DNA of 5,694 bases from a virus (Duplodnaviria; Heunggongvirae; Uroviricota; Caudoviricetes). This document shows positions 1,806-1,850 of the stretch, in pieces. Below the pieces are notes generated by a model. That model ran no database searches, was not told the origin of the DNA, and saw nothing but the letters and a program-made list of their open reading frames with translations. The DNA is taken from the IMG/VR virus record IMGVR_UViG_2698536559_000015; one strand, written 5' to 3'. The first letter of the stretch is position 1. Every line of letters starts with the position of its first letter. A program made the position numbers and the translations under genes.

Positions 1806-1821
1806 ACCTCTTGAATATTCT

Positions 1822-1850
1822 AAACGGCCTAAGGGCCGTTTTATTCTTCT
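1822..1850 (+). terminator. Rho-independent terminator between convergent Q and the minus-strand operon (possibly bidirectional)
   Basis: Stem 1822-1829 (AAACGGCC) pairs with 1834-1841 (GGCCGTTT), loop TAAG, followed by the T-rich run TTTATTCTTCTTT on the + strand. It lies 17 nt after the Q stop and 1 nt from the stop of the - strand gene at 1841. On the - strand the downstream sequence is less U-rich. Confidence 0.7.

Follow-up and report, generated by a model that had tools for sequence, protein, structure and literature searches.

A putative late promoter region separated from its Q antiterminator gene by an antisense cargo cassette in a lambdoid prophage

Gene content and the segment immediately downstream of Q

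The window analyzed here, a stretch of 5,694 nt, is part of an E. coli-type lambdoid prophage (Table 1). A DUF968/HNH gene and rusA are followed by a Q antiterminator gene, a cassette of three open reading frames (ORFs) on the opposite strand, an intergenic region and three tRNA genes, with small late-region ORFs 3' of the tRNA genes. The GC content of the cassette is 0.36 to 0.43, compared to 0.52 to 0.58 in its flanks. The Q ORF matched Pfam family PF06530 (Phage_antitermQ) with an E value of 5e-52 and ends with a TGA codon at 1803-1805. PF06530 has been named the Q21 family (PMC9388147), and the Q21/Q933W family naming comes from Ebright's group (bioRxiv 651190). The Q21 structures 6jnx and 6p18 (crystal and cryo-EM chains) gave a weak, distant match to the window Q (E value of 7.5e-5), and Q of the Stx2a prophage Sp5 of strain Sakai is 46% identical to it. 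The Q antiterminator gene of a lambdoid late cassette is therefore present, as identified by PF06530, by the Q21 structure match and by homology to Q933W.

Table 1 Features of the window and their coordinates
Feature	Position	Strand	Basis or remark
DUF968/HNH gene	14-1069
rusA	1070-1447		In-frame TGA at 1124-1126
Q antiterminator gene, 123 aa	1434-1805	+	PF06530, short QuuD-like type
Two-way intrinsic-terminator-like hairpin (1822-1841) plus T-rich tail	1822-1854	both	Left edge of cargo
Antisense AT-rich cargo cassette, three ORFs	1841-3389	-	ORF listing, GC content
143-aa ORF	1841-2272	-
87-aa ORF	2229-2492	-
293-aa ORF	2508-3389	-	PADLOC PDC-S42, E value 4e-27 (residues 5-286 of 293); phrog_3243
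Intergenic region, 296 bp	between cassette and tRNA genes
Putative late promoter block (pR')	3466-3567	+	Comparison with relatives
A-rich tract, -54 to -40	3466-3480	+	A-run there in nearly all 80 block variants; right edge of cargo
Palindrome GCGGTCCGC, -32 to -24	3488-3496	+	Candidate Q-binding element
Putative pR' -10 hexamer TATTGT	3508-3513	+	Conservation and Sp5 homology
Invariant core TGTTAAGAGTGGT, -7 to +6	3513-3525	+	Start A3520, as inferred from Sp5
Leader hairpin (3533-3559) plus G plus T7 (3561-3567)	3533-3567	+	Position of tR'
Sigma-70 promoter of tRNA genes, TTGCAA-17-TATTAT	3648-3676	+	Promoter scan
Three tRNA genes (CAT, TTT and TCT anticodons)	3686-3926	+	ARAGORN; Rfam confirms 2 of 3
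Strong intrinsic terminator	3942-3965	+	7 pairs, 6 of them G-C, then TTTTTT; first canonical stop for a pR' transcript
STnc100 sRNA (RF02076)	4700-4886	+	Rfam, 114 bits (gathering score, 47)

The complete E. coli genomes that we searched did not contain the stretch as one piece, and the best matches span positions 1-3838 only. A mosaic joint lies at the tRNA cluster: AMSHJX01-type prophages have the first two tRNA genes, up to 3838, in common with the window, and the DNA past 3838 belongs to a different lineage. Within the first part, Q, cassette and the block described below are conserved at 99 to 100% in 20 complete E. coli genomes from varied hosts, and positions 3560-3700 are about 92% identical to the corresponding region of O157:H7 genomes. 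In AMSHJX01, which has an identical Q, cassette and block, the holin, lysozyme and terminase genes lie downstream; the window itself stops before any holin gene. The tRNA gene at 3686-3761 is called tRNA-Met (CAT) by ARAGORN, and an identical gene is annotated in RefSeq as a tRNA-Ile (ileZ-like, Ile-reading after lysidine modification). The in-frame TGA of rusA is a Trp codon in relatives, and a TerB-like ORF (4099-4531) has an in-frame TAG at 4235-4237. Judged from these two stop codons, the prophage that carries Q, cassette and block in this genome may be decaying, and its late unit is possibly without selection here.

Immediately downstream of Q, the first-pass annotation had described a convergent terminator followed by the 3' end of an antisense operon, and this order was borne out. 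The Q stop codon and the hairpin AAACGGCC-TAAG-GGCCGTTT (1822-1841; an 8-bp stem and a 4-nt loop) are separated by 16 nt, one fewer than the 17 nt given before, and the T-rich tail TATTCTTCTT directly follows the hairpin on its 3' side. The predicted folding energy is -15.1 kcal/mol (z score of -4.6) on the plus strand and -14.4 kcal/mol (z score of -4.1) on the minus strand, with an equally stable fold in none of 200 shuffled sequences, and the stop codon of the last antisense ORF (1841-1843) touches the hairpin. The earlier statement that a pR' promoter and a Q-utilization site are lacking between 1806 and 1850 also held: a promoter scan of this segment found no sigma-70-like site on either strand, Q21-type TGAGCA repeats are absent from it, it holds no copy of the palindrome or core described below even with 3 mismatches allowed, and it is not conserved among relatives.

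A conserved block linked to Q

To locate the late promoter, we compared the window with relatives picked by Q protein similarity only (cdtI, mEp390, SfIV, vB_EcoS-716R3 and E. coli 300081), whose Q proteins are 83 to 88% identical to that of the window; the Q gene of the E. coli chromosome among them is 80% identical. All five have antisense ORFs directly 3' of Q, different in each, followed by an intergenic region and then a holin or other late gene. When these intergenic regions were aligned to window positions 3380-3700, they shared one conserved block, corresponding to 3468-3560, in which AAAAATCACTAA-CGCGGTCCGCA-N15-TGTTAAGAGTGGT-(T/C)(A/T)CT is followed by a hairpin and a T-run. A single copy of the 39-nt signature CGCGGTCCGCA-N15-TGTTAAGAGTGGT is present in the window (3487-3525), and chance would give 0 copies even with 3 mismatches allowed.

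The same signature is present in at least 120 IMG/VR viral contigs, and a Q homologue (57 to 100% identical) lies upstream on the same strand in every listed contig whose upstream DNA exceeds about 1.75 kb. In 16 of the listed loci (about 15%), no cargo is present and the block begins 33 to 34 nt past the end of the Q match. The Q reading frame of these loci runs through the A-rich tract, which falls inside the last Q codons, and the stop codon abuts or overlaps the palindrome or sits a few bases before it, leaving a gap of only about 10 to 40 bp between Q and pR'. This position directly after Q is the canonical one for pR', as seen in lambda, phage 21 (annotated) and Sakai Sp5. Among the matches listed, the remaining sampled relatives of this Q (about 85%) carry cargo of about 0.6 to 2.5 kb that separates Q from this promoter block. 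Since the block is conserved behind different cargo, is always linked to Q and occupies the textbook pR' site when cargo is absent, we take it to be the Q-linked late promoter region. On this comparative evidence, the late promoter of the window would be displaced by cargo and neither missing nor lost, with the Q gene about 1.7 kb upstream of the block.

These results separate two possibilities that had been left side by side before, namely that the late promoter was displaced or that it was lost when the cassette was acquired: the comparison agrees with displacement to 3466-3567, and the intact block speaks against loss. They also divide the two candidate sites that had been offered elsewhere in the window, as 3390..3600 contains the putative pR' block while 4692..4720 corresponds to the start of an STnc100 sRNA (114 bits) and is no Q-linked promoter. 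The alignment with related prophages that had been recommended both located pR' and placed the edges of the insertion, and the Stx-type order, with the tRNA cluster downstream of pR', is kept in the window. What does not stand is the view of the layout as an anomaly, since a distant late promoter is normal in this Q family, being found in about 85% of the sampled relatives among the matches listed.

No cargo-free relative with a near-identical Q was found in complete E. coli genomes, where Q identity falls from 99% directly to 80%. For lack of a close cargo-free relative, the insertion edges (about 1800-1806 on the left and about 3466 on the right) were derived from relatives whose Q is 67 to 75% identical. 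No Rfam family matched the late promoter block, a literature search with strings of the block sequence returned irrelevant matches only, and the K-12 transcript-end supplements had no essD, nmpC or quuD entries.

Start site, promoter elements and candidate Q recognition

We used Sakai Sp5 as an anchor for the start site. At the end of its Q gene, Sp5 has the sequence GAAAAAATAG-TTTACGATCGTAAA-AATCTGCA-TATCAT-GATAAGAGTGGTTACATTGCCACGCAG, followed by a hairpin with T7 and, after about 210 nt, a second terminator; its equivalent of the core is GATAAGAGTGG. The Sp5 pR' start mapped by dRNA-seq (Sy et al.) lies 258 nt upstream of the Term-seq tR' end, and RNase E cuts the transcript at a GU|AUU motif at +173 (PMC7547250). 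In the Sakai record, the T6 run of the terminator ends at locus position 1303, which puts +1 at position 1046, the A of GATAAG-A-GTGG and 7 nt past TATCAT. The sole nearby GUAUU is at 1217-1221, and its U at 1218 is exactly +173. Because the checks against the tR' U-tract (+258) and the GU|AUU motif (+173) agree, we assign TATCAT as the Sp5 -10 hexamer. By homology to this hexamer and to the mapped start, the window -10 would be TATTGT, and we infer a start at A3520, a placement that relies on an Sp5 Q of 46% identity and on coordinates converted from the paper to the current Sakai record.

The same -10 register was recovered from conservation. Across 80 distinct block variants, this hexamer fits TAnnnT in 71 and nAnnnT in all 80; the two leading -10 positions, which were not fixed by the search pattern, are T in 71 and A in 80 of the variants. 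A further pattern, from which the hexamer was left out, retrieved 41 genome loci, and every one of them likewise conforms to nAnnnT. The core TGTTAAGAGTGGT is identical in loci found by Q homology alone and in DLP12. That the stretch from -7 to +6 is kept without exception over all Q clades is presumably due to demands set by the host polymerase, which all of them share, or by the 5' end of the leader RNA. There is no recognizable -35 hexamer in the window's block, where the best candidates are AACGCG and TAACGC; the A-rich tract may act as an UP element, perhaps compensating for the missing -35.

Other placements of the -10 hexamer were considered and rejected. TAAAAT in the A-rich tract (3475-3480) has no conserved -35 partner, and its upstream flank is variable or coding. 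CATTTT at 3496-3501 fits nAnnnT in only 51 of the 80 variants, and TTGTTT at 3503-3508 fits TAnnnT in only 17 of 80. An extended -10 (TGnTAAGAG) and a phage 21-like or lambda-like pause element (TAAGAG or AAGAGT) were discarded because either would contain the mapped Sp5 start.

Sigma-dependent pause elements (SDPEs) are a defining feature of the lambda, 21 and 82 systems. No register from +1 to +25 keeps nAnnnT across the block variants, so no SDPE was assigned there. AAGAGT (-3 to +3) and TAAGAG resemble the lambda and phage 21 pause elements, yet they straddle the start site, and TACATT at +7 to +12 is found only in Sp5.

To examine the block over a wider host range, one genome per species was scanned with the downstream half of the block only, which gave the 41 loci across Enterobacterales, with Enterobacter, Kosakonia, Serratia, Pantoea, Erwinia, Edwardsiella, Salmonella and Klebsiella among the hosts. 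Neither core TGTTAAGAGTGGT nor the -10 register varies among these loci. The palindrome always sits 15 nt upstream of the core, and its sequence differs among groups: the types are GCGGTCCGC, GCGTACGC, GCGTTACGC, TACGTACGTA (DLP12), TACGATCGTA (Sp5), TGGAATTCCA, TGTAATTACA and TTCGTTACGAA, with variants in the group list also written as GCG(T/C)TACGC and TTCGT(T/A)ACGAA. When 139 loci were grouped by palindrome, Q identity was 63 to 99% within a type and 34 to 61% between the main types. The palindrome is on one side of the mosaic joint of these regions and the shared core on the other, and a given palindrome stays paired with its Q even where unrelated cargo has come between Q and the block.

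Because the palindrome varies with the Q subtype while the core stays constant, it is probably a Q-binding site, and we regard it, with somewhat better than even confidence, as the candidate Q-binding element (QBE) of the cognate Q subtype; in part, the covariation could reflect physical linkage and not recognition. The palindrome occupies the usual place of a -35 hexamer, and in the DLP12 and Sp5 types its left arm makes a fair -35 (TTTACG, with a 16-bp spacer). The QBE of Q21, a pair of TGAGCA direct repeats 8 bp apart between the -35 and the -10, is absent near Q and in the block, where the element is an inverted repeat. The offset of the palindrome from the -10 matches that of the downstream Q21 subsite from the phage 21 pause element. 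A tentative and more far-reaching model, which we think somewhat unlikely as a whole, is that in the short QuuD/933W-like Q branch the QBE is a clade-specific palindrome that replaces the -35, that Q, with a fold like sigma region 4, loads onto polymerase while sigma region 2 is still bound to the -10 of the promoter itself and a separate pause element is lacking, and that the gap between Q and promoter is a dedicated, terminator-insulated hotspot for the exchange of antisense anti-phage cargo.

Downstream of the core, the leader hairpin of the window has an interrupted 8-bp stem with a predicted energy of -9.5 kcal/mol (z score of +0.36), which is no better than shuffled sequences, and terminator scans did not call it. 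A canonical terminator-like site within +1 to +100 was found in 100 of 118 distinct relatives, compared to 17 of 118 shuffled sequences, and the stem ends at a median position of +51. Next to its relatives, 85% of which pass the terminator criteria, the window has an atypically weak leader hairpin. As an RNA structure, the pairing GTGG..CCAC was rejected, since it is not kept in the variants. In Sp5, the first hairpin and T7 (1071-1092, +26 to +47) look canonical and lie at the usual terminator position of related blocks; this terminator seems to be read through in vivo, as the published pR' transcript reaches +258.

Several minor features of the leader and of the region beyond it were also recorded. 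A 12-nt identity, GGTCACTTCGAC, is shared by lambda 6S RNA (861-872, in the pR' leader) and several block variants (+4 to +15), with 11 of 12 positions matching in the window; as the Q families are unrelated, the likeness could be due to chance or to a shared leader motif. The 1986 record of phage PA-2 (J02580) annotates a CRP-binding site over the leader segment GTGGTTACTTCGTCACAC (1067-1087), in which an inverted GTG...CAC motif is conserved and RNA pairing is not maintained across variants. The promoter of the tRNA genes has a homologue in Sakai Sp5, TTGCAG-17-TATTAT, which lies upstream of ileZ and for which a primary tRNA start site has been reported (PMC7547250), and the tRNA order matches that of phage 21 and Stx phages. 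STnc100 lies between DUF3927 and DUF1737 ORFs in the late leader region and is followed by a canonical terminator (4911-4929 plus T9).

Interpretation, related systems and the cargo slot

We consider it highly probable that a late regulatory unit of the normal Q-dependent kind is present in the window and that a cargo insertion has split it. In this model, Q ends at 1805, the gap holds a 1.65-kb AT-rich cassette on the opposite strand, closed by the two-way hairpin, and pR' would follow in the conserved block. Q would be made from the early operon and act in trans, so that its distance from pR' would be immaterial. RNA polymerase starting at 3520, with a leader of about 48 nt ahead of it that ends in the hairpin and T7, is predicted to be modified by Q. 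It would then transcribe past the leader hairpin, across the tRNA genes and past the terminators at 3942 and 4911, and so reach the lysis and morphogenesis genes. The cassette would be expressed from its own promoter in the lysogen, with the hairpin downstream of Q keeping the Q-operon and cassette transcripts apart.

Two other readings of the block deserve weighing against a split but normal unit. The late promoter could have been lost or inactivated on acquisition of the cassette, leaving a defective remnant with a nonworking block. The stop codons in rusA and the TerB-like ORF, as signs of decay, the leader hairpin that is weaker than those of relatives and is not called as a terminator, and the absence of a good -35 all fit such a remnant. 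However, functional phages have the very same palindrome, -10 and 13-nt core, all of which are intact in the window, the 99 to 100% conservation of Q, cassette and block extends over 20 complete E. coli genomes, and a weak tR' would make for a leaky promoter, not a dead one; we therefore judge inactivation improbable. It is less probable still that the block is no Q-utilization site but controls the antisense cassette, as a divergent promoter or operator, or the tRNA genes. Its placement would suit that role, since the cassette start codon (3389) is 100 to 130 bp away and the tRNAs lie 120 bp downstream; a regulator from the cassette or the host could use the palindrome as its operator, and the PA-2 record puts its CRP site on part of the block. 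Yet the block is unchanged beside 27 unrelated cargo types and where there is no cargo, in mEp390 and DLP12 it immediately precedes the holin genes and no tRNAs are present, the tRNAs of the window are served by a promoter of their own, and the palindrome covaries with Q and not with the cargo.

The last alternative, that a cryptic and divergent Q-utilization site lies near Q, within or next to 1806-1850, draws on the fact that binding sites of the Q21 family are known experimentally for one member only. That segment, though, is mostly hairpin, is unconserved and contains neither a promoter-like site nor TGAGCA repeats nor a 3-mismatch copy of palindrome or core, which makes this the least credible of the readings, with a probability close to nil. 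The split-unit reading also agrees with the existence of phages that are viable with Q far from the block, namely, mEp390, cdtI, SfIV and 434B/DLP12. Phage 434B took up the DLP12 segment with Q, nmpC::IS5, the late promoter and the lysis genes and works with this arrangement, so a 2.9-kb gap between Q and block is compatible with phage growth.

Among known systems, this layout is found in DLP12 of E. coli K-12 (quuD, nmpC::IS5, late promoter, essD) and in PA-2 (lc), in which an antisense porin-gene moron lies between a PF06530 Q and a TGTTAAGAGTGGT block with hairpin and T-run. They differ from the window in their Q subtype (between-type identity of 44 to 53%), their palindrome (TACGTACGTA), a porin cargo in place of a defense candidate and the absence of tRNAs. 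The arrangement in the window is an ordinary one, comparable to that of nmpC in DLP12, and represents what is usual in this Q clade. Sp5 and 933W, the source of the StxS RNA, share with the window the A-tract, the palindrome, TAnnnT, a near-identical core, (G)ATAAGAGTGGTTAC, the hairpin with T-run, a tRNA promoter with an ileZ-type tRNA downstream and a Q of the same Pfam family. In contrast to the window, the Sp5 block overlaps the Q stop codon with no cargo between them, its palindrome is TACGATCGTA instead of GCGGTCCGC, with a left arm that serves as a fair -35 (TTTACG), and its leader runs 258 nt to the second terminator and contains StxS, which the window does not have. Phage 21 is alike in the order of Q, pR', a leader of about 50 nt with a terminator, tRNAs and holin, in having a QBE upstream of the -10 and in its Q family, which is shared though distant. 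Its QBE, unlike the element proposed here, consists of two direct repeats (ATTGAGCA and AATGAGCA) between a perfect -35 and the -10, and it has an SDPE (TAAGCTG) at +2, whereas the window has a single palindrome in the -35 position, no -35 and no assigned SDPE, and its Q has 123 aa compared to 162 aa for Q21.

For annotation, this means that with a Q of this type the late promoter should be sought past the first antisense cassette and not beside Q, and the 39-nt signature finds it. Two by-products are of specialist interest, the clade-specific palindromic candidates for Q sites and the recurrent antisense cargo slot. The table of palindromes against Q clades offers a testable handle on DNA recognition in the largest uncharacterized branch of the Q21/Q933W family, which controls Shiga toxin expression in many Stx phages.

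Regarding the cargo itself, none of the three cassette ORFs of the window had a Pfam match, and the two small partner ORFs (87 and 143 aa) had no PADLOC match; from the PDC-S42 match of the 293-aa ORF, we infer a candidate phage-defense cassette. Among the matches listed, 88 cargo-bearing viral loci have inserts of 0.57 to 2.5 kb that fall into 27 sequence clusters with a GC content of 31 to 43%. In 23 of the 27 cargo types, the main ORFs run antisense to Q, and in all 27 the first 70 nt or so past the Q stop codon contain a stable hairpin, with a folding energy of -13 to -23 kcal/mol and often with A- and T-runs on its sides. These features point to the gap between Q and pR' as a recurrent hotspot for antisense cargo. 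Phage phiP27 has an insert in sense orientation. No description of this slot as a hotspot was found in the literature searched, a limited library that leaves its novelty unproven. The slot resembles prophage morons and defense hotspots, such as those of P2 and P4 (PMC9122126), in that conserved phage genes enclose a fixed place where AT-rich accessory genes vary and bring their own transcription signals; it differs from them in lying between Q and the promoter that Q itself targets and in its almost always antisense orientation. The antisense protein of mEp390 (locus 3428-4246, minus strand) matched the PADLOC TIR-TM model with an E value of 1.6e-57, and since at least two cargoes match anti-phage models, the slot would be a cheap place to seek new defense genes. 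Other cargo proteins matched only PHROGs of unknown function, and many of the other cargo types have a two-ORF layout, one large and one small, also of unknown function.
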